From NCBI GenBank assembly GCA_963667665.2, contig OY763927.2:544001-608000 (forward strand): a DNA stretch of 64,000 bases, read 5' to 3'. Below are positions 4,395-57,214 of this stretch, piece after piece (the stretch's first letter is position 1; every line of letters starts with the position of its first letter). This stretch comes from Nitrosopumilus sp. Lineage in GTDB: Archaea; Thermoproteota; Nitrososphaeria; Nitrososphaerales; Nitrosopumilaceae. A program made the position numbers and the translations under genes. A model generated the notes under the pieces. It was not told where the DNA came from and searched no databases. It saw only the letters and a program-made list of their open reading frames with translations.

Positions 4395-5156
4395 TTGCAA
4401 AAACAAAACAATTACACAAGAAGCTCAATGTTGTACTGGTATCCTAAAATAAAGTACTTGCCAATACCTCAACCTCAAACAGAAATCATACAAATCCCAT
4501 TTGAGAAATTCATTAAATTGATTAATGGCAATTCCACACTATCAGAGTATACAGAACAATTCTCGCAAATCATGGAATTATTAGAGCCATTTCCAATATT
4601 TCTTAGAACTGACAACTCCTCTCAAAAGCATTCCTTCAAGAAAACATGCAGGCTTCCAAATGAATCATCATTATTTGGACACATTTTGGAACTAGTAGAT
4701 TCCAACATGGCCTCAGATTTGACAGATAATGCCCTGGTGTTTAGAAAATGGCTTGATTTGGATGCGGGATTTTTTGCATTTGATGGCCTACCGATTAATG
4801 TTGAGGCACGAGTGTTCATTAATGATAGTGTGATACAGTGCATTCACCCATACTGGCCTGAAGATGCCATAGAATCATGGTTAAACCAAAGAGAATCCTT
4901 TGAGAATCACTTTGGTGAGAAACTACCGGGTACAATTAATAATTCATGGAGGAGAATCCTCAAATCCCAAAATAAGATAGTAGAAGAATCAACTTTAATT
5001 CTAAAAAAATACACAAAACTAATCATAGATTCAATTGGTAAAGATTACTGGAGTGTTGACTTTGCATTAGGTAGAGATGGACGATGGTATCTAATAGACA
5101 TGGCTGCAGGTGAAGTGTCATATCATCCTGACTGCAAATTTGTAATGAATAATTAA
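4395..5156 (+). CDS. ATP-grasp fold protein
   Basis: P.FLR.D..S.KH, E.RVF, SVDF......WYLIDM ATP-grasp motifs. Confidence 0.65.
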   Translation: MQKQNNYTRSSMLYWYPKIKYLPIPQPQTEIIQIPFEKFIKLINGNSTLSEYTEQFSQIMELLEPFPIFLRTDNSSQKHSFKKTCRLPNESSLFGHILELVDSNMASDLTDNALVFRKWLDLDAGFFAFDGLPINVEARVFINDSVIQCIHPYWPEDAIESWLNQRESFENHFGEKLPGTINNSWRRILKSQNKIVEESTLILKKYTKLIIDSIGKDYWSVDFALGRDGRWYLIDMAAGEVSYHPDCKFVMNN

Positions 5157-5609
5157 ATGAAGATTCTCCAAGTTCCAATTTTGTATTGTTTCAGATGTAA
5201 AAACAAATTCACTCCAAAAATTAATGCTGTGGATGAATCAATTGTAATACCCAAGGCATGCCCAAACAGACATTGTCGTTCCCAAACATGGAACATTCCT
5301 GATTCAGAACTAGATATGATTAGAAAGACTCAGAATCGTAATTTACTATTATCCCAAAGGTCTCACACCGGTATAAAGAAAAAGATTCTAGTACTTGATA
5401 AATACACACCAAAAAAATCAGAAAAAAAACCATCAGTGATATGCCTTGACTGTGAGTTATTCTTTCATGATCTAGATGGTTTGAAAGCACATCGACATAG
5501 AAGGCATCATGGAATGTGTATGAAATGCCATGCAAGTAATGTATATGTGATTAGAGTGAATAATACTGCAATTTGTAAAATCTGTTTTGAATCAAAGAAA
5601 AATGGGTGA
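5157..5609 (+). CDS. multi-zinc-finger protein
   Basis: CFRC...CP..HC, C2H2 CLDC..F...L..H...HH, CMKC...CKIC. Confidence 0.6.
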   Translation: MKILQVPILYCFRCKNKFTPKINAVDESIVIPKACPNRHCRSQTWNIPDSELDMIRKTQNRNLLLSQRSHTGIKKKILVLDKYTPKKSEKKPSVICLDCELFFHDLDGLKAHRHRRHHGMCMKCHASNVYVIRVNNTAICKICFESKKNG

Positions 5610-7420: not shown

Positions 7421-9091
7421 ATGACATTTTTAGATAACTTTCCACTACAGTACACTCCACGAGATACTCAAAAAGACGTGATTACACAAATTGAATCTGC
7501 TATATCATCAGGGTACAAAAACATCCTGCTTTGTGTCCCAACTGGAGTTGGTAAATCCCACATTGGAGTGACTGTTGCAAAATCCTTGGGAACATCATTT
7601 GTTATCACAGCGCAAAAGATTCTACAAGACCAGTATACTGATGACTTTGCATTTATTTATTCCATGAAGGGCAAGTCTAATTTCCCATGTATCAACCTGT
7701 ATGATACATCACAGATTTCATATGATATGGCAAGAAATGATCCTCAACTATTATGTAATATGGGACAGTGCTCGTGGGAGGAAAACGTAGGTGGAAAAAA
7801 GAAGACCATATACTGTAAACACAAGCCAAAGTTAGAGTCATTTACCAAACACAACATGAGAACAGAGCAAGAAAAAATAGCAGAACCCGACGAGCAAAAA
7901 TGCTATTACTATAACCAGAAATTCCAGGCATTGCTCTCAACTCACGCGCTATTCAACTATGCATCATACTTTCAAACCAGACTGTACCCACAAGGAATTG
8001 AAGAACTATTGAATAGAGACTGTATCATTGCAGATGAGGCACACGAGATTGAAGATCAAATTATTGGATACATCGGCTATGACATCAGACCCAAAACACT
8101 AGAGGATGTCAGGATGAATTTACATGATTACATCACAAACACAACTGATGGAGTCTTGGAATTGCTAGATATTTTAGGTGATGAGTATACAAGAGAAATA
8201 AGAAGGCTGCAAAATGCAGAAGACAAACGATATCAGACCTACAAGAAAAGGCGTGATAAGATTGATGATATAAAATATGAAATCAAGGATAATCCCGATA
8301 ACTTTGTAATCCAGGAGAATAAAGATGTCTCAGGGGACATCACATCCATATCAATCAAGCCAATAAGTATAGGAAAATACACAAAGCAGTTCTTTGATAG
8401 ACCGACTCAGATTTTCATGAGTGCTACAATTAACAAGATGATGTTTTGCAGAACCATGTCAATTCCTGAAGAACAGTGTGCATACATTGAGGTGGAACAG
8501 TCTCCATTCCCTGTGGGTCATAGAACAATACAATTTCATAATATTAGAAAACTAAACTATCATTCCACTGAGGATGATTACAATACAGTGTATGAAAAGG
8601 CAAAAGAGATTCTCAAGTTTTACGATAAAGAAAAAGGTTTGATTCTCACCACTACAAAAAAACACTGCTCAGATATTGCAGAAAAGTTGGGATGCAGGAT
8701 AGTAATTGCACATGAAGGAGTGCAAGGAAAGAGAGAAAAGATTCTAGAATTGCACAAAAATACAAAAAAGCCTGACGTGTTAGTATCCCCATCATTTTGG
8801 TATGGTGTGGACCTCAAAGATGATTTGTCAAGATTTCAGATTATTCTCAAGGCACCATATCCATCAATGGCAGACAAGAGAACCAAAGTAAAATCAGAGC
8901 GTGACCCATTATGGTATCAAAATAAGGCATTGGAGAAATTGTTACAGGGTTTTGGTAGGTCTATTCGAAGCGAGAATGACTATGCAGAGACTCATGTACT
9001 AGATGAGTCGTGTTATACCTTACTATCCAAGATGAGGCGATTTGTTCCAAAGGCGTACTGGGATTCATTGGGATGGAATGATGACTGCTAG
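7421..9091 (+). CDS. DinG/Rad3/XPD-family SF2 helicase
   Basis: PTGVGKS, DEAH, SAT, GVDL, QGFGRSIRS.ND motifs; Cys cluster after KGKSNFPC. Confidence 0.88.
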   Translation: MTFLDNFPLQYTPRDTQKDVITQIESAISSGYKNILLCVPTGVGKSHIGVTVAKSLGTSFVITAQKILQDQYTDDFAFIYSMKGKSNFPCINLYDTSQISYDMARNDPQLLCNMGQCSWEENVGGKKKTIYCKHKPKLESFTKHNMRTEQEKIAEPDEQKCYYYNQKFQALLSTHALFNYASYFQTRLYPQGIEELLNRDCIIADEAHEIEDQIIGYIGYDIRPKTLEDVRMNLHDYITNTTDGVLELLDILGDEYTREIRRLQNAEDKRYQTYKKRRDKIDDIKYEIKDNPDNFVIQENKDVSGDITSISIKPISIGKYTKQFFDRPTQIFMSATINKMMFCRTMSIPEEQCAYIEVEQSPFPVGHRTIQFHNIRKLNYHSTEDDYNTVYEKAKEILKFYDKEKGLILTTTKKHCSDIAEKLGCRIVIAHEGVQGKREKILELHKNTKKPDVLVSPSFWYGVDLKDDLSRFQIILKAPYPSMADKRTKVKSERDPLWYQNKALEKLLQGFGRSIRSENDYAETHVLDESCYTLLSKMRRFVPKAYWDSLGWNDDC

Positions 9092-10170: not shown

Positions 10171-10875
10171 TTGTTAGATCTTTTTAGAATATTGTTATCT
10201 CCAGAGTTTTTATGGATACCTGGTATGATATGTTGTGTAATTGCGATGAGTGATAATTTTGGAAAACGTACCAGGACTATCTCTCTCCTAATTGCAGCAA
10301 TTATAGCGACATCCATTATTTCACAAAATGACTATATCGGGATAAATGCAATTGAGAATCTATATGAGAATAACAAAGATCATATTCTGTTTGATCTGTT
10401 GACAATAGTTGGTGCCATTGGATTTATTGTAATTCCTACCATCGGGATAATTCCAGCTATCATGCTTGTATTTTTTGTAAGAGATAAGATACAGAAAAAG
10501 AAACTTTTTGTATCCTTGCTGAAAAATTCAAAATTATGTCCTGGGGGTGTGATGTACTTTGATGTGAAATATTCAGGTAGTATGACTATGGGATTTTTTA
10601 CTGCAGATATAATCAACCATTTTGATGATTATTCCATAAAGTCAAAACATTACAATGATGCAAAACAATGCGGTACCCTTTCAGGAAAAGACGCCAGTTC
10701 TGGACTAAGGTGGAATATTCCTGATGATCTTATCCCAGGAAAATGCAAAGTTATCATAAAGGCAAGATGCACGATAAAATTATTTGGATTCTTTTTTCCA
10801 GTATCATATACTCTAAAGGAGCAAGAGTTGGAATGTATGATTTATGAAATGCCACAAGACAATGAAACTTTTTAA
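10171..10875 (+). CDS. membrane protein with C-terminal beta-rich domain
   Basis: Three hydrophobic segments then a soluble domain. Confidence 0.5.
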   Translation: MLDLFRILLSPEFLWIPGMICCVIAMSDNFGKRTRTISLLIAAIIATSIISQNDYIGINAIENLYENNKDHILFDLLTIVGAIGFIVIPTIGIIPAIMLVFFVRDKIQKKKLFVSLLKNSKLCPGGVMYFDVKYSGSMTMGFFTADIINHFDDYSIKSKHYNDAKQCGTLSGKDASSGLRWNIPDDLIPGKCKVIIKARCTIKLFGFFFPVSYTLKEQELECMIYEMPQDNETF

Positions 10876-10904
10876 AGACTATAATCATACAAATATCATA
10901 AACC

Positions 10905-11014
10905 CATCAGGGATGGGATTCGAACCCATGAAACCGAGGCACTCGATTAGAGATTTTCAATCTCTCGCTATACCGCTATATCGCTATATCGCTATACCGC
11001 TAAGCGACCCTGAC
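10905..11014 (-). tRNA. non-canonical tRNA-like gene: Ser-type body (long variable arm, G73), GAA anticodon, 24-nt repeat expansion in the D arm
   Basis: Acceptor GTCAGGG/CCCTGAT+G; anticodon arm AGAGA-TTGAAAA-TCTCT; variable arm AATCGAG-TGC-CTCGGTT; T arm ATGGG-TTCGAAT-CCCAT. Confidence 0.8.
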
Positions 11015-11119
11015 GAGTTTATTATTATTCATCATCATTAAAAGTATAACATTAAACACGAACCAGTCAAATTTTTATCAAAATATTTTATTTCTGAAAA
11101 ATTCTAAAACAAAATTATA

Positions 11120-11458
11120 ATGTTTGATTTAATACAAGATACAATCTCTGCCCTGTTGTGGCCTGAAAAGTCATGTTTTACTACTGGAGAGTTTTTGGGT
11201 TTTAGCGCAGGCATCATATTGGTGTGTATTGCATTTGTGTTTGGAATGGTACTACTGCCAGAATCAATCCTTGTCGTAATTGTTGTCATTGTATCATCTG
11301 TAATTGGTCTTGGTACCTTTATGGCCAAATTCTCCAGTCATTATCTAAAGGCAATATCGCTTCGTGGGTTTGGTTTTTTGATCTTTGTTGTATTGGCGTA
11401 TTTTATGGTGCAGATAGAGTCATTTCCTACAGAAGATACAATTGTAAACTGGCTGTAA
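11120..11458 (+). CDS. small membrane protein
   Basis: Three hydrophobic helices. Confidence 0.55.
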   Translation: MFDLIQDTISALLWPEKSCFTTGEFLGFSAGIILVCIAFVFGMVLLPESILVVIVVIVSSVIGLGTFMAKFSSHYLKAISLRGFGFLIFVVLAYFMVQIESFPTEDTIVNWL

Positions 11459-11475
11459 TTTTTACATCACCGTTA

Positions 11476-13563
11476 TTATAAATTCATACTGTCTATTTTT
11501 AATTCTGGCATTTCATATAATGTATAATTCTGGTTTAATTCTACTTTTGGATTCAAAAACTTCATAAAATTTTCATGATGTGCCGCTCTTAGTATGGAGC
11601 TAGGCATTACAAAACCTATGTGCCCTTTATCTTTTAGATATAGATCTACTACTATGCAAAAAAATAGAGTTGCTAACTCCATATGGGTATAAAGATATTT
11701 TTTTGATTTATCAAAAAGACCATACTTTTGACTACCCTCTTTTAGGAATTTTTTATAAGTTTCATTTTTCATTTTTTTAATTGTAATCCATGGTGGATTT
11801 CCCATAATGATATCTACTTTATTTTTTGATAACGCCATAGGTTTTGTAGCATTTTTAATGATGTATGGCCATATGGAATCTCTATCTTCATCAATTAACT
11901 TGATGAGTAATTGATAATTTTCAATCCATAGTTTCCTTGTTGGTTCTGATGAAATATTTTTTACTGCATTTCTAAAACCTTTTAAAAGATTTTCTCTATT
12001 CATTGCCAAAATTCTATCTCTAGATTCCTTTGGAACATTTTCATTTCGGAATTTTGCATCTTGGTAAGATTGAGCATGATCATGCATTTTTTTAATAACG
12101 TCATCTGTATTTGCTGTTTTACTAATTGTATCAGTTGGAATTTGGAAAAAATGTTTTTCTGTTGCTTGAATATCAAAAACATTTTTGCCACTAAATAAAC
12201 TAGATTTTTCAGATGGTAATTTAACAGAGTCACAAAGATATACGGGAATTTCTATGGGGTGTTTTTTATGATAGGGTAATTTTCCCAAAGCCAATAAATA
12301 ATTTGTTTTTGCAATAATTACTGCTAAAGGGTGTATGTCGAATCCTTTCACCGTTGAAAGTACATGAGTTAAGAGATCATTATCATCAGGAAATTCAGAT
12401 CTTAGTCTGTCAATTTTATATTTTATTGCTGAAAATAGGAATGTTCCAGAACCGCAAGAAGGATCTAAAACACTCTGTTTTGGATTATTTTTTAATAATT
12501 CATCAATACTCATTTCTGCTAGCCAATCCGGTGTGTAAAACTCCCCTAATTCTTGACGATATTCTGGATCAACCAACTCCTGATAAAGTTCTTTTAATAC
12601 ATCCTCGTTAATTTTTTCTAAATCATAAACCTCTACAATCTGATTTAATAATTTGAAAAGCATTGGATTGACCTTTTTATCGAAATGAGGATATGTAATC
12701 CATGTGAAAAAATCTTCTTCAACAAAATTATGTATTCCCCAACCATGAAAACTATGACCATGTAAAATAATTGGCATGTCTTTTTCTTGGAAAACTTTTC
12801 CTCCTGTTAGACGTACATGTACCATCAATTTTACTAATGTTGATAGGTAGGTATGCCTAATGAAAAGATCTAATTCTTCTATGGAATCCCCGTAAACTAT
12901 TTCTAAATATTTTGACCAATTTTGAAATTTTGTTTTAAAGAATTCAGTATCCTCAATTAATTTATGTAATGTCCATAATTCATCTTTGAATGTATTGTAT
13001 GTAGCACTCTTTAATCCAAATCTTTTTTTTATATCGTCAGATGTTGGAACAATATGTCGTTGAAGAAATAGATACGAATCAAACCAATTATAGATTTGTT
13101 GAGCATCATTTGTTTTATTCAGATTTAAAGAATCAGTTTCACGAACACCTATGACTTTAATTCGTTTTCCTGTTTCAGTATGAGAGAAAATAGGTTTGTA
13201 GGCCTTGAAGAGTATGCCGTCGTTTGCTATTCCTATGAAATCAGTTCCGGCATATTTTTCATGATAAGTTTGAAAATATTTTAGTAACTCCTCTTCTGCA
13301 ACTTTAATTGCAGTCGATAAATTTTTTTTAAATTCAAAAATCACATTTCCAAAAACTGCATCTATTCTTCCTCGTTTTTTCATATACACAGTTTTTACTC
13401 CATATTCCCATTCTATTTCAGCAGGATCAACTTTGAAAATATCATAGAGAAAAATTGCTGCAAAATATGTGGCTTTACTATTTTCTGATTCTTTTTCTTT
13501 AACTACTCTGCGATATTTTGATAAAACCTGTTCAATGATTTTAACAGGATTATGTGACAACAA
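11476..13563 (-). CDS. type IIG-like restriction-modification fusion (nuclease + N6-adenine methyltransferase), probably C-terminally truncated
   Basis: RID...FEFK nuclease motif; GEFYTP, DPSCGSGTF, NPPW; ends soon after the MTase with no specificity domain. Confidence 0.8.
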   Translation of the reverse strand: MLSHNPVKIIEQVLSKYRRVVKEKESENSKATYFAAIFLYDIFKVDPAEIEWEYGVKTVYMKKRGRIDAVFGNVIFEFKKNLSTAIKVAEEELLKYFQTYHEKYAGTDFIGIANDGILFKAYKPIFSHTETGKRIKVIGVRETDSLNLNKTNDAQQIYNWFDSYLFLQRHIVPTSDDIKKRFGLKSATYNTFKDELWTLHKLIEDTEFFKTKFQNWSKYLEIVYGDSIEELDLFIRHTYLSTLVKLMVHVRLTGGKVFQEKDMPIILHGHSFHGWGIHNFVEEDFFTWITYPHFDKKVNPMLFKLLNQIVEVYDLEKINEDVLKELYQELVDPEYRQELGEFYTPDWLAEMSIDELLKNNPKQSVLDPSCGSGTFLFSAIKYKIDRLRSEFPDDNDLLTHVLSTVKGFDIHPLAVIIAKTNYLLALGKLPYHKKHPIEIPVYLCDSVKLPSEKSSLFSGKNVFDIQATEKHFFQIPTDTISKTANTDDVIKKMHDHAQSYQDAKFRNENVPKESRDRILAMNRENLLKGFRNAVKNISSEPTRKLWIENYQLLIKLIDEDRDSIWPYIIKNATKPMALSKNKVDIIMGNPPWITIKKMKNETYKKFLKEGSQKYGLFDKSKKYLYTHMELATLFFCIVVDLYLKDKGHIGFVMPSSILRAAHHENFMKFLNPKVELNQNYTLYEMPELKIDSMNL

Positions 13564-15065: not shown

Positions 15066-15136
15066 GGGCCTGTAGCATGAGGGTCATACACCTAAGTAAG
15101 AACTAGGAGATTTGGGTTCAACTCCCAACAGGTCCA
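15066..15136 (+). tRNA. degenerate tRNA-like element (nominal anticodon AAG, short variable loop)
   Basis: Acceptor GGGCCTG/CAGGTCC+A; T arm TTGGG-TTCAACT-CCCAA; anticodon arm CCTAA-GTAAGAA-CTAGG with one mismatch; D stem GCAT/ATAC with one mismatch. Confidence 0.65.
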
Positions 15137-15310
15137 CACTACACATAATGTACATTTAGGTAAAAATTATTCAAGGAAATTTCTGAAATACCTAGCAACA
15201 GATTCTGAAACTTTGACTAATATGTCATTAGATTTTGGTTTGTCTTTCTCCAAATATCTGAAATTTCTTGATTTTATTTCCCCTTTAATACAAATCATTC
15301 TTGTATAGTT

Positions 15311-21255: not shown

Positions 21256-23145
21256 ATGTCTTCATTTCACTCTAGAATTTCAAAAAATTCCCCTTTAATA
21301 CAAAAACTATTCTACATTACAGTGAAAACAAAGCAGATAAAGTCATTCAAACTGGACCCATTTAATCTTGAATTTGCATTAGTCTCTACAGATGTTGCAG
21401 GAATATCAGAAAAAGAGCTATCCATATTATCATTTCTCTCATTCTTTGACAAGTTTACAGAGCCATTCTCCATTGATGTAGTGCGAGACTATGAGGATTT
21501 GCTATTCTACAAAACCATAAGGAGTTGCAGATTTGATAATGTAATAATTAACACAAGCCAGGAAAACCCTGAAAACATCCTACCTGGCGTATCATCTGCA
21601 TCTACCAGAAAGTGGGAAATAACAGAGGAGCATCCTGATTATTGTATATTAAAAGATGGATTATACTGTAAAACATACACGTTATCCATGCTTCATGATG
21701 ACTTGCCACCTGGATGGATTTACGGGTTGTATCAATATTCTGATGCAATAAGAATATTTGTAGAGCCTATACCTGACGGAAAGACACAATCAACAATTGC
21801 AAACCACAAGTCAGCTGCTGCCACAATGTCATCAGCCACTGGCATGAACTCGACTGATAATATCTCAATAATAAAAGAGTTGGTCCTAAACAAGAAAAAC
21901 CAGAAACTGTTCTTTACTAGAATAAACATTGTACTACTTGCAGCGGATGTCTCATCATTGCGCTCTAGAGAAAAAGAGTTTCTACAAAATACAAAAAACA
22001 TTCCAGGTATTGAGACTGCAAAACATGTCCAGAAAAAATTACTCCACGGAACAGAAGGTCAGAGAATTTTAATGGTGAGCAGTGCGTTTCACTGTCTTAT
22101 TCCGTTTGTAACATCAGAATTGTACGAGGAAGGCGGCATACTGTTGGGGGAAAATACAATGACAGGAAATCCAATCAGATGGAACATCAATAACCGTATC
22201 AATAGAAACACTGTACTTGCATCTACTTCTGGATCTGGCAAGACAACACTTGCAATGATGATAATTCATGCCTTTGAAAAGATGCATCATAACGCGTTTA
22301 TCTTTGGAGTTGATCCTGAAAACGAGTATGCAGTACTGGGTCAGAACATGGGATTTACCTGTGTGGATTATTCCTTTGGAAAAAAGATGGGTCTTGATTT
22401 ATTCAAGATGGTCCCAGATACTTTTGCTGCAACTGAAACATTGTGCAATGCGCTAAACGTTCCAGAAGTGGACAGAATCATTCCAAATATGGCTGCAACC
22501 ACCCTTGCAAATCTTGACATCTCGCACAGAAGCTTTACAAAATTCTATGAGATAATGGAAAAAAACGAAACAGACAATCACGCCCTAAAATATTTTAAGA
22601 TGTTGACTATTCCTCCATATTCTGACTTTTTTGAAGGGGAACCACCAAAGTCTAACAAGATAATTCTATCGCTAAAAAACATCGGCAGTGCTGGTGGAAC
22701 AGTACACAGACTAATCACACAGATTGCACTGTCTTATGCAATGGGCAGGGCATTGCTAATGCCCAAAATAATTCCGAAACTATTCATGCTAGATGAGGTG
22801 TGGATGTTACTACAACACGACTCTCTTGGTAATTATATTCAGAACTTGTCAAGACGTGGAAGAAAATACAACATCAATCTCATGATGGCAACTCAGAACA
22901 TTGAGGATATGACAGATAATGTATCTGCTCGAAACGTCCTGGTGAACAGTGACACTGTTATGTTTCTCAGGCAAAGTGAGGCTACTGCAAAATCACTCAG
23001 AGAACACTTTGTACTCTCTGATAATGCCGTCTCCTATATGATGAGATTAAACAGGGGACAGGCACTGATAAAATACGGAAATAGCATGGTTCCTGTAAAT
23101 ATCTTACCTGATGATGAGCAGTTAAAACTGTTCAGACCGAGATGA
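21256..23145 (+). CDS. virB4: VirB4-like conjugation ATPase
   Basis: STSGSGKT Walker A, DPENEY, LDEVW Walker B, RRGRKYN, ATQ. Confidence 0.85.
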   Translation: MSSFHSRISKNSPLIQKLFYITVKTKQIKSFKLDPFNLEFALVSTDVAGISEKELSILSFLSFFDKFTEPFSIDVVRDYEDLLFYKTIRSCRFDNVIINTSQENPENILPGVSSASTRKWEITEEHPDYCILKDGLYCKTYTLSMLHDDLPPGWIYGLYQYSDAIRIFVEPIPDGKTQSTIANHKSAAATMSSATGMNSTDNISIIKELVLNKKNQKLFFTRINIVLLAADVSSLRSREKEFLQNTKNIPGIETAKHVQKKLLHGTEGQRILMVSSAFHCLIPFVTSELYEEGGILLGENTMTGNPIRWNINNRINRNTVLASTSGSGKTTLAMMIIHAFEKMHHNAFIFGVDPENEYAVLGQNMGFTCVDYSFGKKMGLDLFKMVPDTFAATETLCNALNVPEVDRIIPNMAATTLANLDISHRSFTKFYEIMEKNETDNHALKYFKMLTIPPYSDFFEGEPPKSNKIILSLKNIGSAGGTVHRLITQIALSYAMGRALLMPKIIPKLFMLDEVWMLLQHDSLGNYIQNLSRRGRKYNINLMMATQNIEDMTDNVSARNVLVNSDTVMFLRQSEATAKSLREHFVLSDNAVSYMMRLNRGQALIKYGNSMVPVNILPDDEQLKLFRPR

Positions 23146-29589: not shown

Positions 29590-30006
29590 ATGACTGAACA
29601 AAACAATTCAGAGAAAATAAGAACCAGTCTAATGCGACGACAAAACGTGATATTTGTGGCAATGATAATAGTTGGGTTATTCCTGACCATCACGAGCCAG
29701 CTAATAGACAAACGACTGCTAAGTGAAGGCATAGCCTTTATTATAGTTGGATTCGTAGGTATGTTAATGTCTTGGACTACAATGGATATTGGCGCAAGTA
29801 TCAAGGAGGTAATCTATGATGTCGGCAGACAAAACCTGACAGTATTAGAATCCATTGCAAAATCTCAAAACGAGATGGTAAAATCTCTAAACGAGATGGT
29901 AAAATCTCTAAACGAGATGGTAAAATCTCTAAACGAGATGGTAAAATCTCTAAACGAGATGGTAAAATCTCTAAACGAGATAAAAGAAATCTTACAAGAC
30001 AAATAG
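29590..30006 (+). CDS. two-TM protein with heptad-repeat coiled-coil tail
   Basis: Two TM helices then (MVKSLNE)n. Confidence 0.6.
   Translation: MTEQNNSEKIRTSLMRRQNVIFVAMIIVGLFLTITSQLIDKRLLSEGIAFIIVGFVGMLMSWTTMDIGASIKEVIYDVGRQNLTVLESIAKSQNEMVKSLNEMVKSLNEMVKSLNEMVKSLNEMVKSLNEIKEILQDK
29860..29980 (+). repeat. 21-bp tandem repeat, about 5.7 units
   Basis: AAATCTCTAAACGAGATGGTA units. Confidence 0.9.
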
Positions 30007-32599: not shown

Positions 32600-33952
32600 A
32601 TGGAGAAAAAGAAATTTCTCATTGTTGGAAGCGGAGGACGTGAAAGTGCTTTTGCCATGCAACTCATGCAAGACACGCAAGTTTATGCTGTCATTTCTCA
32701 CAAAAATCCGCTCATCATAGATTGTGTGATACAGTCAGGTGGCAAATATTTGGTCGGTGATGCAGATGATCCGCAAACAGTTCTGAACTTTGCAAAAGAG
32801 AACAACATAGATTACGCTTTTGTCAACGCAGATCAGCCATTGGCTAATGGTGTTGTTGATGTTCTACTTGATAATAATTTCAAGGCAATTGGTGGAACAA
32901 AGGATGCAACACGCATAGAGTGGGATAAAATTTACTCCATTCAAATGATGCAAAAAACGTGTCCAGAGTTTACGCCATTTTACAAAGTTGTTTCAAAAAC
33001 AGAAGAACTATCCGATGCAATAGAATTATTTGAATCAAAAAGACTAGAGATAGTGGTAAAACCACAAGGACTAACAGGAGGCAAAGGTGTCAAAGTAATG
33101 CCTGAACATCTGTCAACATATCATGACTGCATTGACTATGCATCTCTTCTTCTTGAGAAAAACCCTGACCAAAAGGTTCTGTTGGTAGAAAAGCTGCAAG
33201 GCATAGAGTTTACAATCATGGGAATCACTGATGGTACAAACTTGGTTGTATCTCCTGCAAGTTATGACTATCCGTTCAGACATGAGGATGACAAGGGTGC
33301 AGGAACCGGAGGCATGGGATGCTTTACCAACTCAGAGAAAAAACTTCCATTCATGACAGACCGTGACTTGGATGATTGCAGATACATCATGCAAAAAATA
33401 ATTGATGAGATGAAATTGAATCATCTGTTTTTTAACGGTGTTATCAATGGTGGCTTCTTTAAAACTAAACATGGCATAAAATTCATGGAGTTTAACGGAC
33501 GCTTTGGAGATCCTGAAGGATTAAACATTTTAAGCATTCTTGAAGGGTCATTCTCAGAACTGCTGATTCATCTTTGGAACAAGACACTATCTGATGATGT
33601 GGTTTCGTTTGTAAAAAAAGCAAGTGTTGTAAAATATCTGGTTGCACATGAATATCCAGAGCGAAGCGACAAGGCAATCTCTTTTAGCATTAATGAAAAG
33701 GCAATTAATAATCTTGGCGTAAAAACATTCTTTGCATCCTGCATAAAAACAGGAGCACAGCAATATGAAACCCTGAAAAAATCACGGGTTGTCGCATTTA
33801 GTGCGCTTTCAGACAACATAGATGAAGCTTCGTCTTTGATAAATAAAATAATTGAAATGCATGTCAATGGTGATTTGGAGTACAGACATGATATTGGTTC
33901 TCAAAAGAGTCTGGAAAAATTAAAAAAAATCAATGCTGAATTAACTCATTGA
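32600..33952 (+). CDS. purD: phosphoribosylamine-glycine ligase
   Basis: VGSGGRE.A, GGKGV, D.G..TGGMG, EFN.RFGDPE, YR.DIG. Confidence 0.9.
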   Translation: MEKKKFLIVGSGGRESAFAMQLMQDTQVYAVISHKNPLIIDCVIQSGGKYLVGDADDPQTVLNFAKENNIDYAFVNADQPLANGVVDVLLDNNFKAIGGTKDATRIEWDKIYSIQMMQKTCPEFTPFYKVVSKTEELSDAIELFESKRLEIVVKPQGLTGGKGVKVMPEHLSTYHDCIDYASLLLEKNPDQKVLLVEKLQGIEFTIMGITDGTNLVVSPASYDYPFRHEDDKGAGTGGMGCFTNSEKKLPFMTDRDLDDCRYIMQKIIDEMKLNHLFFNGVINGGFFKTKHGIKFMEFNGRFGDPEGLNILSILEGSFSELLIHLWNKTLSDDVVSFVKKASVVKYLVAHEYPERSDKAISFSINEKAINNLGVKTFFASCIKTGAQQYETLKKSRVVAFSALSDNIDEASSLINKIIEMHVNGDLEYRHDIGSQKSLEKLKKINAELTH

Positions 33953-43406: not shown

Positions 43407-44501
43407 GTGGAATTTTTCAAGACGTTCAAGAACGAATCAGGCATCTATGCATATGTAGAACTGATTGACAGCTCCATCTATCCGCCCCATCACATCAAGA
43501 TTGATTTTGACGAGCTGACTGAAGAACTGAAGGAGATTGTAAAAAATGAGAGCGAGATCAGGTTACACTTTGCCATCTACCGCAGCATTGGCGAGATATT
43601 TCAGGCAAGATATGGAGGTGCGGAACTGCAGGTTTTTCATGACAATAATTTTTTCAAGTTTGAAATTTTGAACTTTGAAAACTACAGCTCGAAAATTTTT
43701 GAGAGCCCACAACTGATCTACTGGAATAATGCGGATGATGGGTGGTTCAATGACGAAGACAAGATTGACAACGCTGCAATCCAGCTCCAAAAAGACAATC
43801 GCTTTTGTACACTGAGGAAATCAAACGAGATTCTGATGTATGATGGAAAAATCTATGACGATGTTGCAGCGGAGACGGTAATCAAGGAGGAGACGGAGAA
43901 GATAATTCCAAACTGTGGAATCAGAAACAGAATCGAGGTGATAGAAAAAATAAAGGCGCAGACATACACGGACCTGGAACTGTTTGACAGCGACCCCAAC
44001 ATAATCACGATTAACAGCGGAATCCTGGACCTGGAGAAGGTCGAAATCAACGAGCACACCCCACAGAACCAGAGCCGGGTACTGATTCCACGGAATTTCA
44101 AGACCCCCGAATTCAGGATTAATGACAAAACTATTTTTGAAGACATTGAAAAAAACCTGAGGGCTACCGAATTCTGGCAGTTTCTCATAAGATCATTCAC
44201 AATCAATGGGGAACTTCAACAGAAAAGCCTGGAGACAGTTCTGGAAATTTTGGCCGCACCACTGGTGAAGCACCAGATTGACGACAAGGCCTTCATGAAT
44301 CTGGGCAGCGGTGACAATGACAAGTCCGTCTTTCTGGGATATATCGGGGAGATGTATGGAACCAGGAACGGGTCAAACATTGCGCTGCAAGACATCGCGG
44401 ATGACAAGTTCTACCGCGCAAACCTGGACGGAAAAAGCTTCAACATATTTCCTGATCTGGAGAAGAACGAGTTGAGACATGGCTCTGGTAGGTTCTGGTA
44501 A
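43407..44501 (+). pseudogene. truncated D5/P4-type primase-associated SF3 helicase
   Basis: D5_N-like I...SGILDL...HTP; degenerate Walker A GSGDNDKS; L.GK..NI..D; cut by a repeat at 44481. Confidence 0.75.
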
Positions 44502-44660
44502 AAAACGGTGATCAAGATCACCAAAATTTAACAGCAGGGTTATGATAGATAATTTCGAGAAAATTACCAAGTACTAATTATCCCAGGATTTCAAAGAGCG
44601 ATTCGGAGAGGATCTATGTCTGATGATTTATGGTGCAGATCACCAGAATTTACCAGAACC
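44491..44660. mobile_element. 170-bp MITE-like element with 23-bp imperfect TIRs, copy 1
   Basis: GGTTCTGGTAAAAAACGGTGATC ... GATCACCAGAATTTACCAGAACC. Confidence 0.7.
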
Positions 44661-44853
44661 ACCAGAACCAACCAAAGCGCGTGGCATGGTGGAAAGGATC
44701 CGTGGTATGGATGCTTGAAGCGTTTGGAGGTGTCTGTTAAGTTGTCGTCGTGCCTAGAATTGCGTTAACTTCCGTCGCGCGGGTGTTCTAGGGTATAAGA
44801 CGAGTGGGGTTGGAAAGGGGGGATACTCCGGTGGCAAAGTGAGCACGACTGGA

Positions 44854-45606
44854 TTAACCGAGATTTGCCATATCTTTGCGTAGTGTTTGATGAGCATCCT
44901 TAAGAAACCGATTCGCGTGCAGTTTGATTGACTCTGCATTGTGTGCATCAGTTGGGTCAAACCTATCAGCATCTAGTTTGAGCCCGTCATCTGACGTTAG
45001 CGGGTAGTATTTCGCGATGCCTGTTTTAGTGACATCATTAGGATCCTCTGAATGCACCACGAGGTTTCGTAGATGCTTCAGCTGTTCGCTCTTAAGATGT
45101 TGCTCACAATAAAGATACTTGATTGCGGATGCCCAGTCTTTGGAGCGTTCTGCCCGCCTTGCATCTCTAAGGTATCCCAGTCTCTTATTCAGTGAATGGT
45201 TGCCACTCAGTATTTCCTGTAAAACATTATCTGAAATGTTCAATACAGCGTTGTTGCGTATAGAATAAGCAATAGACACATCCCTACATATCCTGCCGTC
45301 ACTTGATTGCTTTCCATGAAAAACCCACTCTGAAAAAGTTCCTGATGTGGCTGAAAGAAGGTCTGTCAGTTTGTCCGCTTTCCTTTTAGCCATGAGCTCC
45401 GCTTCTTCCTCACTATCTGCCTCAACCGTGATTTCAAACCCCTGAATTGTAGTTTGCTCTTTGTACTTACCAAACTTAAATTCGACATCTGATCTATTTG
45501 CCGTGTCGTGTTCGCAATGTATGGGTTCAGTTAACCCAAAGTCAGTTATCCATTTCATGACGCTGTCACAGAACCGCAACTTGTCTTCGCCAATGACCCA
45601 AGGCAT
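44854..45606 (-). CDS. putative HEPN-domain RNase (ApeA/MauJ-like architecture)
   Basis: RNLVVH (RxxxxH) in a helical C-terminal half after a beta-rich N-terminal half. Confidence 0.55.
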   Translation of the reverse strand: MPWVIGEDKLRFCDSVMKWITDFGLTEPIHCEHDTANRSDVEFKFGKYKEQTTIQGFEITVEADSEEEAELMAKRKADKLTDLLSATSGTFSEWVFHGKQSSDGRICRDVSIAYSIRNNAVLNISDNVLQEILSGNHSLNKRLGYLRDARRAERSKDWASAIKYLYCEQHLKSEQLKHLRNLVVHSEDPNDVTKTGIAKYYPLTSDDGLKLDADRFDPTDAHNAESIKLHANRFLKDAHQTLRKDMANLG

Positions 45607-45932
45607 GGGCTGATATTCTTGGTCAAGGCCGTCTTTAGTATGACCGACGATCTAGAGGGAATTATATAAAAGCTCGGCTGAGCGGGGCTGCGTCTTACAG
45701 ACATAACCAACTGTTCAGCCTCATCAGCGACAATTTCGCTTTCCGGTCCAAGAAACCAAGGCTCAAAACCAGTATCTTCTGCAAGTTTTGGAAAAACATT
45801 CTGTAGTAGGTACATCTCTTTTTGAAGGTGAATAGGACCGGGAATAGATTCTGAGTTTTTGGCACCTAACAGTAGCAAAATGAATCTATCCACCTCATTC
45901 AACTGTGCAATTTTTTCATTAATTTCTGTCAT
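45555..45932 (-). pseudogene. SocA/Panacea-like winged-helix antitoxin fragment
   Basis: LQKEMYLL...F.P..LGP.S motif; similarity appears to end near 45700. Confidence 0.55.
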
Positions 45933-46095
45933 ACCACTTTCATTTTCTTTGATAAAAATTTCTTTGCCATCTGTTATAAATGTGATAATAGGTTCTGGTA
46001 AATTCTAGTGATCTACATCATTAATCATTAAATATGGATCTTCTTCAAATTCGATTTCATTGAATCAGATCCAGATAATGAGGATGACAAAAAAA

Positions 46096-46308
46096 GGTTC
46101 TGGTAAATTCTGGTGATCTGCACCATAAATCATCAGACATAGATCCTCTCCGAATCGCTCTTTGAAATCCTGGGATAATTAGTACTTGGTAATTTTCTCG
46201 AAATTATCTATCATAACCCTGCTGTTAAATTTTGGTGATCTTGATCACCGTTTTTTACCAGGGTTCTGGAAGATTTTGGTGATCAGATCATTAGAATTTA
46301 CCAGAGCC
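46096..46308. mobile_element. inverted MITE copy 2 (46096-46261) plus 47-bp mini-element (46262-46308); degenerate copy starts at 45991
   Basis: 46096-46261 is the reverse complement of 44495-44660. Confidence 0.8.
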
Positions 46309-46466
46309 TAATGATGTAGATAGGTTAGCATGATCCAAATGTCATCATACCAATTTTAATTGGAACTCTTGATGATATGATTATAAAAATAAAAACACCT
46401 TTAGCTTCAACATAGTCAAAATGAATTGAATACTTTCTTAATAATAACAACTTTAAGATTGCTTTA

Positions 46467-47669
46467 ATGACAACAACAACGAAAAAAATGTTGATGCTAA
46501 CTGCCGTACTGACAATGGTTATCATACCTGGTTCAGTTTATGCAGCTGGTTTTAATGAACATCAAGTAGAAAGTGTATCTGGCAATATAGGAAAAGTTGC
46601 TGATGGCACATTTGATGAGAAGGTCGCTCAAGATAGATTAGAATATCTTATGGTAGACCAAGCTGAAACTGGAGTATCACATGAAAATGAAATAACAGCA
46701 ATAGAAACAGAATACCAAAAACTATATCAGATGGATACTACTCTTCGTGACGAATACCAAGTATTAGCTGATTTGCTAACAGAGACATTGGTTACTCTTC
46801 ATGCAGATAAATCTAGAGCTATCGAAGATAGAATGTCCGAACTTCCTATAGTTAAAATTGGCGTCAGCTCAAAAACACAATCTCTTGCTATTGGATTAGA
46901 CAATGATTACGTTAGTGAGGCGGATATATCAAAATGGAAAAAATACATTAGAAATATGCTAAGCAATTCGGATGTAAAATTGACCATAACTGTAGGTTCA
47001 GCTCCAACTCTTGATACACACACATCCAATAGAGAAACTACTACTGTAGATCCCCTAAAAGGTGGTGCAAGTGGTGGGATTTGAAGATGGTTCTAACAAC
47101 ATTACATGCTCAGTTGGATATATGGCAACTGAAAATGGATCTGGCGATACTGGATTTGTTTCAGCAGGCCATTGTACTGATCTTGTCGGTTGGGACAAAC
47201 AGGTATTGACATTCATCAACCAGTAGCCACTACAACAAATGACATTGCAGTAGTAGATGAAGAAGATTTCAGTTCTTCAACATATTGTGATTGCTCATGG
47301 AATGAGTTCAATTCTGGTGAGAGTGGTGTAGCAAAAACCATGTATAGTCTAACATCCGACTTTCCTGTATATAGTCAATATACCGTCACATCAAGTAGTG
47401 AAGGATTGGCTGTTTACAAATCTGGTGCTAAGACAGGATATAGCGTAGGTGTTATCGACGAATGGAAAACCACAATCGTTGCAGATGGAGCTACCCTCAA
47501 AAATGTAGTTCAATCAACATATTCTGCACAAGGTGGAGATAGTGGGGGTTCCTTCATGCGATTAAATGGCATTGCAGGAATTCATGTAGCACATGATGAT
47601 GATTATTCATATGCTGTAACTGTTTCAAGAACAAACTATTACTTAGGAGTAACACCAGTCTTCTCCTAG
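46467..47669 (+). pseudogene. secreted S1 (streptogrisin-like) serine protease with two frameshifts
   Basis: Signal and propeptide, GFVSAGHC near 47152-47175 in another frame, GDSGG in the last ORF. Confidence 0.75.
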
Positions 47670-47679
47670 TAATTTTTTT

Positions 47680-48279
47680 TTATTTATATTTTCTAGAAAA
47701 CCAAATTAAAAATAAACTACAACATATTATAATTACAGAAACAGAAATTACAGGATCAACAACAAAAGGATGAACAGAAGGGGTAATGTCAGGTTGTGGA
47801 ATCTCACTAGTTTTATTTACAATATAGACTGATCTATCTAATGAAATTTTAGAGTCAAATATTTGTTGATTTGTACTTAACCATGTAGTTATTACGGCAA
47901 TTGTAACAGTCAGAAACTTTACCCCTTCTTTAAAAAACTTCTTTAAAAATTCATTCTCATGTACTTCTTTTTTGGTCTGGGTTGCTGTGACAAACATGTT
48001 TGGCACCATTTTATAGTATTTGTGGTCCACTCCTTTCTTTACAATTTGTTTGTGTGTTACTATCAATAATCCCAACTCTTCGAGTTTCTTGAGATGAAAT
48101 ATTGTAATATTCATTTGAATTCCTAATTTCTTTGATATCTGGTTTATGTACATCTCTTCTTGTGTTAAAAGTTGTATTATCTTTCTGCTTGTTTCAGTGG
48201 AGAGAAGTTGACCCAGAATCTTTAGTGATTCATCATCATTACCAAAAACTCTGATTTTTGTGTTATTCTCTTCAGTCAA
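47680..48279 (-). CDS. ArsR-type winged-helix regulator with C-terminal TM helices
   Basis: L..ETSRKII.LL, HLKKLEELGL; two hydrophobic segments. Confidence 0.75.
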   Translation of the reverse strand: MTEENNTKIRVFGNDDESLKILGQLLSTETSRKIIQLLTQEEMYINQISKKLGIQMNITIFHLKKLEELGLLIVTHKQIVKKGVDHKYYKMVPNMFVTATQTKKEVHENEFLKKFFKEGVKFLTVTIAVITTWLSTNQQIFDSKISLDRSVYIVNKTSEIPQPDITPSVHPFVVDPVISVSVIIICCSLFLIWFSRKYK

Positions 48280-48428
48280 ATTAGTAATTTGTTACAAAAT
48301 AGAATTGCTATTAATCTTTAAGATTATAATATACCTTTTAATTGTGAATGATATTTGATTTTTCCTCTTAAAACATTCAATGACAATTGAATATAGTCTT
48401 AAATCAATTTTAAAAATAACCTCAATTA

Positions 48429-48667
48429 ATGAATAGAAAATCTACTATCTCGGTTCTTAGTGGACTTGTAGCTGTGTTAGCAATAGCATCTTTGGGTTTT
48501 GGAATTCCCCCACAAGAAGCAGAAGCAAGTCACAACGGAGAGCCAACAATGTGGGTTAATGGAATCAATGATGGACAAACTCATAGTTACATCTACAATG
48601 TACCAGCACCAAATCTGGACATGAGTGTTGCATTATTGATTAAAGATATGGCAGAAAAACCAAATGT
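48429..48667 (+). pseudogene. secreted protein N-terminal fragment cut by the mini-element
   Basis: Signal peptide AEA-S; the reading frame runs into the 47-bp repeat. Confidence 0.5.
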
Positions 48668-48714
48668 GGTTCTGGAAGATTTTGGTGATCAGATCATTAG
48701 AATTTACCAGAACC
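48668..48714. repeat. 47-bp palindromic mini-element, copy 3
   Basis: Differs from 46262-46308 at one base; lies 4 bp before the transposase ATG. Confidence 0.85.
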
Positions 48715-48718
48715 TTCC

Positions 48719-49646
48719 ATGAATAGAAACTGGAAAAAATACAACCAAACACTAGTAAGAAGAGGTGAAATCATGCTGTCTTTTGATGCCATAGAATCAT
48801 GGACAAAAGAACTCAAAGAAATGAATCGCAGAAAAGAAGGACACCAGTATGTTTATCCTGAATTATTCATGGAAGCACTGGGATACTGCCATGCATATCT
48901 GCATCTTCCATATAGACAAACTGAAGGTCTGATAAAATCACATCTCAAATCCAAGACAGAAACACCAACATATTCTGCCATCTGGAAAAGAGTAAACAAG
49001 CTTGACATCAAGATGAGCCCAAAGCTGGGAAAAGACATTGTCATTGCAATAGATAGTTCAGGAATCAAGGTTGCAGACAGGGGTGAGTGGATGAGACAGA
49101 AATGGCAGAAAAGAAGAGGATTTCTCAAGATTCATGTGGCAGCAGATGTAAAATCAAAACAGATTACAGGTTTGGAAATTACAGATGATCATTCCCATGA
49201 TTCCAAATCTTTTGTATCACTAGTTGAGCAGTCAAAGCAATTTGGAAATGTGACTAAGACACTAGCTGATGGTGCATATGACAAAAGATAATTTTTCATA
49301 TTTGTACCATGGTAACATAATTCCAGGAATCAAGACAAGAAAGAACTCATCAGTTACTACTGATTGCTATCCAAGAAGAAAGGCAGTACTGGCCCAAATG
49401 TATAATTATGATTTGCAGAAGAACAGCGTAAGCTATGGCGATAGGTGGATCGTAGAAGGAGTGTTTTCTGCATTTAAGAAAATGTTTGGAGAGCCTGTCA
49501 CATCACACAAAAGAGAAAACATGATTCATGAGTTGAAAATGAAGGTCTGTCTGTACAATAAAATGATTGCAATGCAATAGAAAAATCAAAATTGTTTCAA
49601 ATGGTTAGATGGTGTTAATGATTAGTTGGTGTTGGGAAACAAAGCA
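48719..49646 (+). mobile_element. IS5-family (IS903-like) transposase, frameshifted; right-end-like AACAAAGC at ~49646, left end not seen
   Basis: NW..YN..LV.RG, AIDSSGIK, KIHVA.D, ADGAYD, RW.VE..FS.FK.MFG. Confidence 0.8.
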
Positions 49647-55863: not shown

Positions 55864-55964
55864 GGTTTATTGCATTTTATAAATATTGCCATTTATTACC
55901 ATTCATTGCCATTTATTACCACTCATTACCAATAGTATATATAGTGGGCTTGGAAACCCAAACC

Positions 55965-56474
55965 ATGAGTACACAATCACAAGCAAGCAAGAGCACTCAA
56001 ACTCCTGCAAGCAAGAGCACTCAAACTCCTGCAAGCAAGAGCACTCAAACTCCTGCAAGCAAGAGCACTCAAACTCCTGCAAGCAATGTATATTCAATAT
56101 ACACGCAAAATGTTCAAAAATACTTTGAAAATATCTCAAAAATCACCCCACAGTATTTTCAAGCTATCACACAATTGCAAGAAGAATGTATGAAAACATG
56201 TGAGAAAACAATCAATGCTGCAGTATCTGTACAGCAAGAATTTGCAACAAAATCAGGTCTTTCAACTGAAATTCCAAATGATGCAAGAACTGCAATCGTA
56301 GATACCAACAAGCAAATTGTTCAAGCAACCACATTAGGCAATCAATTGACAAAAACTACAATTGATGCAACCGTACAAAACATCAGAACCTTCGGCGATA
56401 ACATTAACGCATTTGTAGAATTGAATAGAAATATTATCCAGTCATGGGTAAACCCACTCACACTAAAAAACTAG
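55965..56474 (+). CDS. thaumarchaeal helical protein with N-terminal 8-aa repeats
   Basis: ASKSTQTP x4 (24-bp tandem repeat, ~55983-56084). Confidence 0.65.
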   Translation: MSTQSQASKSTQTPASKSTQTPASKSTQTPASKSTQTPASNVYSIYTQNVQKYFENISKITPQYFQAITQLQEECMKTCEKTINAAVSVQQEFATKSGLSTEIPNDARTAIVDTNKQIVQATTLGNQLTKTTIDATVQNIRTFGDNINAFVELNRNIIQSWVNPLTLKN

Positions 56475-56537
56475 TGTGATTATTTTTTCTTTTTTTATTT
56501 TATCTAATCCATATTTGTGAATAATTTTATTTTGAAT

Positions 56538-57209: not shown

Positions 57210-57214
57210 TATGA

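Follow-up and report, generated by a model that had tools for sequence, protein, structure and literature searches.

The window analysed here, a stretch of 64,000 nucleotides, corresponds to bases 544001-608000 of a 1.89-Mb genome with 34% G+C, which contains archaeal tRNA introns, TFIIB and TBP genes and an archaeal amoA. On its minus strand lies a class II tRNA gene with the anticodon GAA, whose underlying form is 86 nt long and which is expanded to 110 nt in this allele. The features discussed below are as follows:

10900..10904, minus strand: 3' trailer GGTTT directly after G73 (flank comparison, 20 family copies)
10905..11014, minus strand: class II tRNA gene, 110 nt, anticodon GAA (sequence reading, family covariance model)
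10906, minus strand: tRNA position 72, U here and C in runs X7/X3 (plus strand A>G)
10966..11002, no strand: tandem array in the D loop, 8-nt unit, plus-strand consensus CGCTATAC (Tandem Repeats Finder)
11037..11043, minus strand: TATA-like TTTTAAT, 23-29 nt upstream of the tRNA 5' end (flank comparison, 20 family copies)
11110, no strand: alternative junction, 96 nt upstream of the tRNA, with the leftward sequence replaced by unrelated DNA (minor X7 contig)
11476..13563, minus strand: truncated type IIG restriction-modification methylase (homologue comparison)
15066..15137, plus strand: class I tRNA, alanine-type acceptor, leucine anticodon AAG (ARAGORN, Rfam)

Structure of the tRNA gene

Read on the minus strand, the gene has a 7-bp acceptor stem (GTCAGGG/CCCTGAT) with a G1.U72 pair, U8-C9, a 3-bp D stem (GCT/AGC) and G26. 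The D loop consists of the units GCGGTATA-GCGATATA-GCGATATA-GCGGTATA, which in RNA form, from 11014 to 10905, become UAGCGGUA UAGCGAUA UAGCGAUA UAGCGGUA U between GCU and AGC. The anticodon stem of 5 bp (AGAGA/TCTCT) closes the loop TTGAAAA, in which the anticodon GAA occupies 10958-10956 (G34 at 10958, A36 at 10956). The variable arm AATCGAG-TGC-CTCGGTT forms a 7-bp stem, one U.G pair included, with a 3-nt loop; UC precedes the T arm, which has a 5-bp stem (ATGGG-TTCGAAT-CCCAT), and the discriminator G73 is found at 10905. The full 3' part of the RNA reads AGAGA UUGAAAA UCUCU / AAUCGAG UGC CUCGGUU / UC / AUGGG UUCGAAU CCCAU / CCCUGAU / G. Every element listed in the earlier note, which had been made from the letters of the window, is present on the minus strand of 10905-11014. 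For the pair 1:72 (alignment columns 1:114), 16 of the 18 rows of alignment A2 have GC, one has GU and one has another combination.

The flanks of the gene also have counterparts in the family described below. The leader ends with AAACTC, which is the same in many members, and TTTTAAT upstream of it, a TATA-like box conserved in the family, would be a putative promoter element of the tRNA. CCA is not encoded after G73 of the window tRNA; instead the GGTTT trailer, common to most members, follows directly, which resembles an oligo-T terminator and may act as one.

A family of class II tRNAs with the anticodon GAA

A BLAST search over 201 genomes of Nitrosopumilaceae gave long matches in four genomes. 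The covariance model R1 was built from six copies and run on two sets of 151 genomes each, one from the family and one from the class, and ARAGORN was applied to the fetched loci of the BLAST and R1 matches. It turned out that 19 cloverleaf copies (the window copy included) and one degenerate copy exist in 14 Nitrosopumilaceae genomes. At E<=1e-15, R1 matched 8 of 80 Nitrosopumilaceae genomes (5 of 33 in the same genus) and none of the 70 genomes from 11 other families of the class. The homologues of a protein neighbouring the tRNA are assigned to Nitrosarchaeum and Nitrosotenuis. Together with the amoA, TFIIB and TBP genes and the tRNA introns, this places the host among the ammonia-oxidising archaea of the Nitrosopumilus family.

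Each of the 20 copies to which BLAST or the covariance model led has the anticodon GAA, and the anticodon loop is YTGAAAA in 19 of them and CTGAAGA in the other, so that A37 occurs in 19 of 20. The homologue comparison proposed in the earlier note was thereby carried out: no copy has GGA or TGA, so that the outcome named there as a refutation did not occur, and GAA is neither a read error nor a one-off. Of the 19 cloverleaf copies, 18 have G73 and one has the leucine-type A73. The stems of the variable arm range from 3 to 7 bp among the relatives, and the mean column identity is 67% in alignment A1. In alignment A2 (18 rows), which was fitted to the covariance model, 96.7% of the cells are paired and 16 of the 20 pairs show double-sided changes, including all five pairs of the anticodon stem, which covary. 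Such covariation was reached by none of 500 shuffles, and slid controls were 39-50% paired. Since the cloverleaf and GAA have been kept through many compensatory changes, the RNA itself is under selection, and 19 cloverleaf copies with one architecture make the window tRNA more than a chance fold.

Some copies are damaged. For instance, L063 has a broken T arm, L500 has a 6-nt D loop without GG, and L288 is truncated and has no 3' acceptor strand. L113b has a mismatched anticodon stem and is a hybrid, in which the parent changes inside the anticodon loop.

The pattern GTCAGGGTCGC-N18-24-YTGAAAA was scanned in viral, metagenome and genome sequences, where most matches were chance. True tRNAs made up 0 of 29 viral, 3 of 80 metagenome and 14 of 118 genome loci, so that the known copies grew by 3 from metagenomes and 11 from genomes (Nitrosopumilus, Nitrosotalea and Thaumarchaeota/Nitrososphaerota archaeon); the GAA loop being part of the pattern, they carry no information on the conservation of the anticodon. 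An exact 30-nt pattern of the anticodon and variable arms had no match in metagenome contigs or in viral contigs, and a pattern of the tRNA 3' end had none in viral contigs.

Amino acid identity of the tRNA

Several features of the body are of the serine type. U8-C9, the 3-bp D stem, G26, a long variable arm and also G73 are common to the family and the tRNA-Ser genes of the host, and the next-best R1 matches in other genomes are tRNA-Ser(GCT) genes at 23 of the 30 loci checked. The loop CTGAAAA is the host Ser(GGA) loop with G35A. Within the class II serine set, the long arm with its stem and G73 are present, while the serine anticodon (NGA/GCU) is absent. Sequence reading and family comparison thus bear out what had been described before, a serine-type body with a GAA anticodon, and the A73 of a single family member would count against a uniform serine type.

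The anticodon is disregarded by two synthetases, SerRS and AlaRS. The genome encodes one standard SerRS, with a Seryl_tRNA_N arm-binding domain, and one PheRS; there is no dedicated extra synthetase in the genome, and none in the window. The host has tRNA-Ser genes for GCU, CGA, UGA and GGA (the last with an intron) as well as a canonical tRNA-Phe, and with this full normal set the window tRNA is an extra gene. It is not a duplicate of a host tRNA, being far from all four tRNA-Ser and five tRNA-Leu genes. An att copy of a host tRNA was rejected as well, as the 3' part is not repeated in the window or the genome beyond chance matches of 15 nt.

The anticodon G34-A35-A36 is normally read by PheRS, for which it is an identity element. 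The main rival of charging with serine is accordingly a class II tRNA-Phe, charged by PheRS through GAA and serving as a spare tRNA-Phe of a virus or element, for instance because it cannot be cut by an anticodon nuclease of the host or of a rival, or because it supports translation during infection. The invariance of GAA in 20 of 20 copies is what an identity element of PheRS would lead one to expect, the gene is carried by mobile or viral DNA like many virus-borne tRNAs, and correct insertion of Phe has no fitness cost. Against this, the host tRNA-Phe at genome position 630199 is a 75-nt class I tRNA with the loop CTGAAGA, G37 and A73; the window tRNA has the anticodon GAA in common with it and differs in its class II arm, A37 and G73. 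Across the family, A37 in 19 of 20 copies departs from the G37 of canonical tRNA-Phe, and G73 in 18 of 19 departs from the A73 of both host GAA tRNAs. Excerpts of a published account (PMC7609411) give the long variable arm together with G73 as the identity set of SerRS. Besides, no nuclease was identified, and the codon counts given next provide no motive of codon supply. We therefore regard a class II tRNA-Phe as unlikely, although PheRS may also, or instead, charge the window tRNA.

To see how the codons are read nearby, we aligned the neighbouring methylase with 119 homologues. TTY codons of the gene aligned mainly with F (61%), followed by Y (7%), I (7%) and S (2%), while L (49%) and I (17%) stood opposite the CTY codons. 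For the methylase gene, a reassignment of codons was thus rejected: TTY still means Phe there and the code is unchanged. Phe codons amount to 46.4 per 1000 in 21 ORFs of the element and 44.1 per 1000 in 1210 host ORFs, so that Phe codon use of the element equals that of the host, and a codon-supply motive was rejected. A tRNA that constitutively put Ser in the place of Phe would be a burden to a genome in which 44 of 1000 codons are for Phe.

Genomic context and mobility

The chromosomal sites and the flanking host genes differ between the loci of the family. The neighbours are often genes for ParB/MT-A70 methylase, TFIIB-like protein, helicase, tyrosine integrase and transposase, with housekeeping genes on the opposite side; at one locus (L102) none of the genes within 5 kb is of a mobile type. 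In the window, the region from about 1.4 to 32 kb, which contains the tRNA, has no housekeeping genes. The truncated methylase consists of the N-terminal 671 residues of homologues of about 1040-1100 aa, its breakpoint lies about 0.5 kb from the tRNA, and the C-terminal part is absent from the genome. The contig of run X7 with the alternative junction at 11110 (record 8) has a depth of 39, compared with 1147 for the main contig, and 11110 is probably the right end of a mobile segment that carries the tRNA. An integrase was not found in the window.

When IMG/VR was scanned with a general pattern, 113 loci matched. Most of them were phage tRNA-Ser(UGA) genes, and two class II tRNAs with GAA were found as well. 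One of the two has anticodon and variable arms near-identical to those of the window copy (the anticodon arm is exact), and its contig of 11.9 kb encodes baseplate-like proteins as well as the large subunit of a terminase (phrog_675, E 9e-30). The GAA tRNA family is accessory and located in variable virus- or plasmid-like DNA of ammonia-oxidising archaea.

With such surroundings, the gene could be thought of as a recombination module, in which the conserved anticodon loop is an att or crossover site of an integrase and the role of the RNA is secondary. Copies often stand at the border of housekeeping and mobile genes, tyrosine integrases lie 2.5 kb downstream at two loci (L062, L101), the hybrid L113b switches parent inside the anticodon loop, L288 has lost its 3' acceptor strand, and the X7 junction lies 96 nt upstream of the tRNA. 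According to excerpts of PMC6563490, thaumarchaeal elements commonly use tRNA genes and have very short att sites, which can be only 8 bp. An att site, however, has no use for a cloverleaf, yet compensatory changes have preserved all four stems, and conservation extends to the flanks that resemble a promoter and a terminator. Only 7 nt are common across the family around the supposed core, and the window has neither an integrase nor a direct repeat of the tRNA 3' part. Taken together, this makes a recombination module distinctly unlikely. The anticodon arm also resembles a 21-nt repeat at 29859-29981 (15 of 16 match, E 0.46), which we judged to be chance.

Another possibility is that the whole family consists of decaying tRNA-Ser copies, which acquired their anticodon by chance mutation and hitch-hike on mobile DNA. 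Damaged copies are indeed frequent (the window allele with its 24 additional nt and C72U, L063, L113b, L288 and L500), and among seven relatives tested with Rfam, five passed the tRNA threshold (37-59 bits) and two fell below it. However, the divergent copies keep every stem via double changes at a mean column identity of 67%, and GAA in 20 of 20 is a conservation not expected of dead genes. A family of dead genes is very unlikely on this evidence. The suggestion that the gene was simply a pseudogene is plausible for the window allele, with its insert and C72U, and fails for the family.

The repeat in the D loop

The array in the D loop has a period of 8 and 4.6 copies with 93% matches (score 60 in Tandem Repeats Finder). 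Its excess over the family is 24 nt, or three units of ambiguous register, which are absent from all relatives in alignments A1, A2 and A3. In the closest relatives the unit is single: L063 has GCUUAGCGAUAUAGC, and the D arms of L152, L500, L379 and L353 are different. The single-unit form already holds a direct repeat, TAGCG...TAGCG, with 8-nt spacing, which provides a seed for slippage.

We compared contigs (not raw reads) of four public runs with the window over 10600-11400. In the main contigs of X7 and X3, the 24 nt are left out at 10965 and there is G for A at 10906; the X3 contig spans the whole of 10600-11400, and the X7 contig covers 10600-11139. The allele of X7 and X3 is thus an 86-nt gene with C72, in which the G1-C72 pair is restored. 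Because the locus lacks the 24 nt and has C72 in both runs, the window allele is private and the length of the array is polymorphic, as the earlier note had suspected when it proposed variation in repeat number. As in a contingency locus, the copy number varies, from 4.6 units here to one in the X7 and X3 main contigs. Each of the two runs also holds a 38-nt contig on 10966/7-11002 with two letters different. Since a cyclic 31-mer unitig drawn from a perfect period-8 array should measure 31+8-1 = 38 letters, long perfect arrays of 38 nt or more seem to occur in the X7 and X3 samples, unless these contigs stem from another locus, as they might. RNA contigs of two runs cover only 10635-10853 and 11257-11400, which belong to neighbouring ORFs and have no bearing on tRNA expression either way.

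The fold predicted for the 110-nt form leaves the acceptor, anticodon, variable and T arms as they were and retains the D stem (P 0.99). This stem is lengthened by the insert to an imperfect hairpin, and GG is missing from its apical loop. The GG of the D loop pairs with the T loop and is needed for the D-loop/T-loop elbow. With GG buried in this way and with C72U, the allele is probably inactive or weakened, to judge by fold prediction. As the length of the array differs between populations, slippage may toggle the gene.

The 24 nt could otherwise be an archaeal intron at a non-canonical position in the D loop, spliced to give a functional 86-nt tRNA. At least six tRNA genes of the host have introns, and removal of the 24 nt restores the family consensus exactly. 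However, when the D region was searched by script, a bulge-helix-bulge motif turned up in neither its strict nor its relaxed form, which means that the insert is not an archaeal intron; it is made of copies of flanking exon sequence, as is typical of slippage, it occurs in no relative (A2, A3), and the locus exists without it in X7 and X3. An intron is thus highly improbable.

Detection by gene finders

Default ARAGORN and Rfam at its gathering threshold both missed the window tRNA, and found only the tRNA at 15066-15137. In E-value mode Rfam gave it 25.8 bits as a tRNA, compared with a gathering score of 29, over model positions 8-63 only, and it is the insert that puts this allele below the RF00005 threshold. 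The family model R1 scored it at 87.9 bits end to end (model positions 1-90) with the 24 nt treated as an insertion. When introns were allowed, ARAGORN forced the gene (genome c[554904,555015]) into a tRNA-Ser(tga) that has an intron of 24 nt and an anticodon stem with mismatches. The ordinary tRNA-Ser(UGA) in a shifted register that this output implies has next to no probability, because its anticodon stem is mismatched and the position of the intron arbitrary, the stem around YTGAAAA covaries at 5 of 5 pairs across the family, the shifted register is unpaired in the relatives (A2), and a normal tRNA-Ser(UGA) already exists in the host. The 5-bp stem supported by family covariation fixes the GAA register, and the TGA register, already described as weak from its short stem, is rejected.

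Proposed function

The reading that we prefer, and to which we give about even chances, is that the window holds a slippage-expanded, strain-specific allele of a mobile accessory tRNA, whose normal form is a reader of Phe codons charged with serine. The single ordinary SerRS of the host would charge the tRNA through its long arm and G73 and leave the anticodon unread. The serylated tRNA would then put some serine at UUU/UUC in competition with the normal tRNA-Phe, and the result would be a mobile mistranslating tRNA with no change of the code. In the window allele, the direct repeat TAGCG...TAGCG of the D arm would have slipped to give three extra 8-nt units, and C72 would have changed to U. 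The long imperfect D hairpin made by the insert would bury the GG of the elbow, and the 110-nt allele is probably off or crippled. If a mistranslator is costly, damaged copies such as the window allele, L063, L113b, L288 and L500 would be expected to be common. The interesting part is the family itself, and the window copy is a repeat-expanded allele that is probably disabled, as far as the fold prediction goes.

Comparison with known systems

To our knowledge, class II tRNAs whose body and anticodon are mismatched are known only as the nev-tRNAs of nematodes, the allo-tRNAs of bacteria and the tRNAs of CUG-reassigned yeasts. According to excerpts of Hamashima et al. (PMC3333845), nev-tRNAs are nematode class II tRNAs that are charged by body and not by anticodon, and decode in vitro. 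From the same excerpts, they resemble our family in being class II, in having an anticodon of neither Ser nor Leu, in being conserved in a clade and in deriving from a normal class II tRNA, and they differ in being eukaryotic, chromosomal and derived from Leu, with Gly/Ile anticodons and no repeat array. The family described here, in contrast, is archaeal or viral, mobile and of the Ser type (G73), and has a Phe anticodon.

Allo-tRNAs are bacterial and are defined by an 8/4 or 9/3 acceptor/T branch of 12 bp, as given in excerpts of Mukai et al. (PMC5389517). Like the family, they have a long variable arm, serine features and non-serine anticodons, and in those excerpts they are sporadic in genomes and metagenomes. 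The window tRNA is archaeal and has a 7/5 branch, which is supported by covariation, and by the definition in the excerpts it is not a member. Of the label "allo-tRNA-like" in the earlier note the analogy stands and the architecture does not: since the branch is neither 8/4 nor 9/3, the likeness is one of analogy only.

CTG-clade yeasts have a tRNA-Ser(CAG), which represents a fixed chromosomal reassignment. In humans, a tRNA-Ser with G35A (anticodon AAA) is a rare recent allele that gives Ser at Phe codons. In both cases, as would hold for the family, a serine body reads a hydrophobic codon, and the human variant is a change of the G35A type, as in the family loop compared with Ser(GGA). The family differs from both in being old, diversified and mobile, and the codon meaning is unchanged in the neighbouring gene.

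Typical viral tRNAs have a body that matches the anticodon, and are explained by codon supply or escape from nucleases. The family is likewise located on viral or mobile DNA, with one close relative beside a terminase gene, but here the body and the anticodon disagree and codon supply is not at issue. Bacterial simple-sequence contingency loci depend on repeat slippage in coding frames or promoters, and we know of no repeat of this kind in the D loop of a tRNA. As in the window tRNA, they have a short tandem repeat in a gene and a copy number that varies between close populations; they switch function, as the repeat of the window tRNA may do.

Such tRNAs in Nitrosopumilus or Thaumarchaeota were absent from the literature searched (outside subscription journals), in which an old, diversified and mobile family of mismatched tRNAs in archaea and viruses is undescribed. 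Its anticodon targets Phe, a very common codon in these AT-rich genomes, and either outcome of charging would be new, i.e., a mobile programmed Ser-for-Phe mistranslation or the first class II tRNA-Phe. The hosts are nitrifiers of global abundance, so that virus-host dynamics in the ocean could be influenced by a mobile factor acting on their translation. The length-polymorphic repeat in the D loop also provides a natural on/off pair, 86 nt and 110 nt, for tests of function.

A second tRNA with mismatched identity

About 4 kb from the GAA gene, the class I tRNA at 15066-15137 combines its leucine anticodon AAG with an acceptor that has G3:U70 and A73 and is one pair away from that of the host tRNA-Ala. 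A second GAA tRNA, at genome 7847-7921, has the host tRNA-Ala acceptor with one pair changed, again with G3:U70 and A73. We also found alanine-type homologues in two other genomes, including one of the same genus, where the anticodon is AAG or GAA. G3:U70 and A73 are present in each of the 5 copies.

A wider reading, which we consider doubtful and put forward as a speculation, is that a kit of tRNAs with a deliberate mismatch is carried by viruses and integrated elements in ammonia-oxidising archaea. It would degrade or remodel the host's or a rival element's proteome and would be gated by the minisatellite in the D loop. Serine-type class II tRNAs would read Phe codons and their sister copies Ile/Leu codons, while alanine-type tRNAs (G3:U70, A73) would read Phe or Leu codons, so that the kit would exploit SerRS and AlaRS, the synthetases blind to the anticodon. 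As such a tRNA would be costly, it would be gated by a hypermutable structure within the gene, and, if this is true, the window tRNA would be the first in which an 8-nt minisatellite of the D loop acts as a phase switch. The co-occurrence of alanine-type and class II tRNAs fits the kit without proving it: sister class II copies with GAU and CAA anticodons do occur, and in three genomes a distance of 4-8 kb separates the alanine-type tRNA from a class II copy with GAA.

Alanine-type tRNAs with Leu or Phe anticodons

Two genes of the host genome have an alanine-type acceptor:

15066-15137, + strand: class I tRNA of 72 nt, called Leu(AAG)
Genome C1:7847-7921 (locus L268, not part of the window): second tRNA called Phe(GAA), additional to the canonical one

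The acceptor of the tRNA at 15066-15137 (GGGCCUG/CAGGUCC, with A73 and G3:U70) differs from that of the host tRNA-Ala by one base pair, and there is an A31.C39 mismatch. This tRNA carries A34, which is unusual in archaea. Among its homologues in a genome of the same genus, the one at locus L116 retained AAG, while the one at locus L117 has GAA, with four changes that all fall within the loop. These mobile tRNAs also show internal rearrangements: at L117 (c1501-1644), the alanine-type tRNA carries a second copy of its 5' two-thirds, which ARAGORN calls a 72-nt intron.

The tRNA at C1:7847-7921 has the acceptor GGGCUGG/CCAGUCC with G3:U70 and A73, and also U20; a DDE transposase gene and genes for giant DUF285 surface proteins adjoin it. 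A similar tRNA is located at 1407-1478 of locus L114, where a class II GAA tRNA, i.e. a serine-type body with the phenylalanine anticodon, lies at a distance of 5 kb.

Class II tRNAs in related genomes

Other mismatched anticodons, GAU (Ile) and CAA, were found in class II tRNAs of related genomes (L104 c7015-7107 and L103 5085-5175). The CAA tRNA has a Leu anticodon yet G73, and it is adjoined by purD; in the window this host gene, at 32600-33952, also borders the variable region. Locus L113 contains a tandem pair of class II GAA genes (5061-5146 and 5353-5435) with 206 nt between them, the second being a hybrid whose anticodon stem is mismatched.

Virus-like, mobile-looking and truncated genes

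7421-9091, + strand: helicase
11476-13563, - strand: truncated type IIG restriction-modification methylase
21256-23145, + strand: HerA/TraG-type ATPase
43407-44501: D5-primase-like ORF
48719-49291: DDE transposase

The helicase matches the viral helicase family phrog_2488 from end to end (E 4.6e-84), and the ATPase also has a weak match to the phage terminase family phrog_2666 (E 2.7e-11), in its C-terminal part only. What lies here could be the remains of a provirus instead of a conjugative element. The methylase aligns to residues 7-671 of a homologue of 1060 aa, whose C-terminal ~390 residues have no counterpart anywhere in the genome.

The D5-primase-like ORF and the DDE transposase belong to a second mobile-looking patch (43407-49291), which also contains an ArsR-type regulator. 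The whole genome has 16 integrase-family matches in total. Of three identical tRNA-Cys(GCA) genes (C1:20214, 1836797 and 1848283), two have integrase-like ORFs beside them; these ORFs, at 1837351-1837800 and 1847351-1847800, are identical and inversely oriented.

Tandem repeats

29859-29981: 21-nt unit, 5.9 copies, 99% matches, inside ORF 29590-30006
55983-56086: 24-nt repeat, 4.3 copies
57251-57643: 15/30/45-nt repeat units

Each 21-nt unit is identical at 15 of 16 nt to the 3' half of the anticodon arm of the class II GAA tRNA at 10905-11014 (E 0.46), a likeness that probably arose by chance. Tandem repeats are densely packed at 55884-57755.
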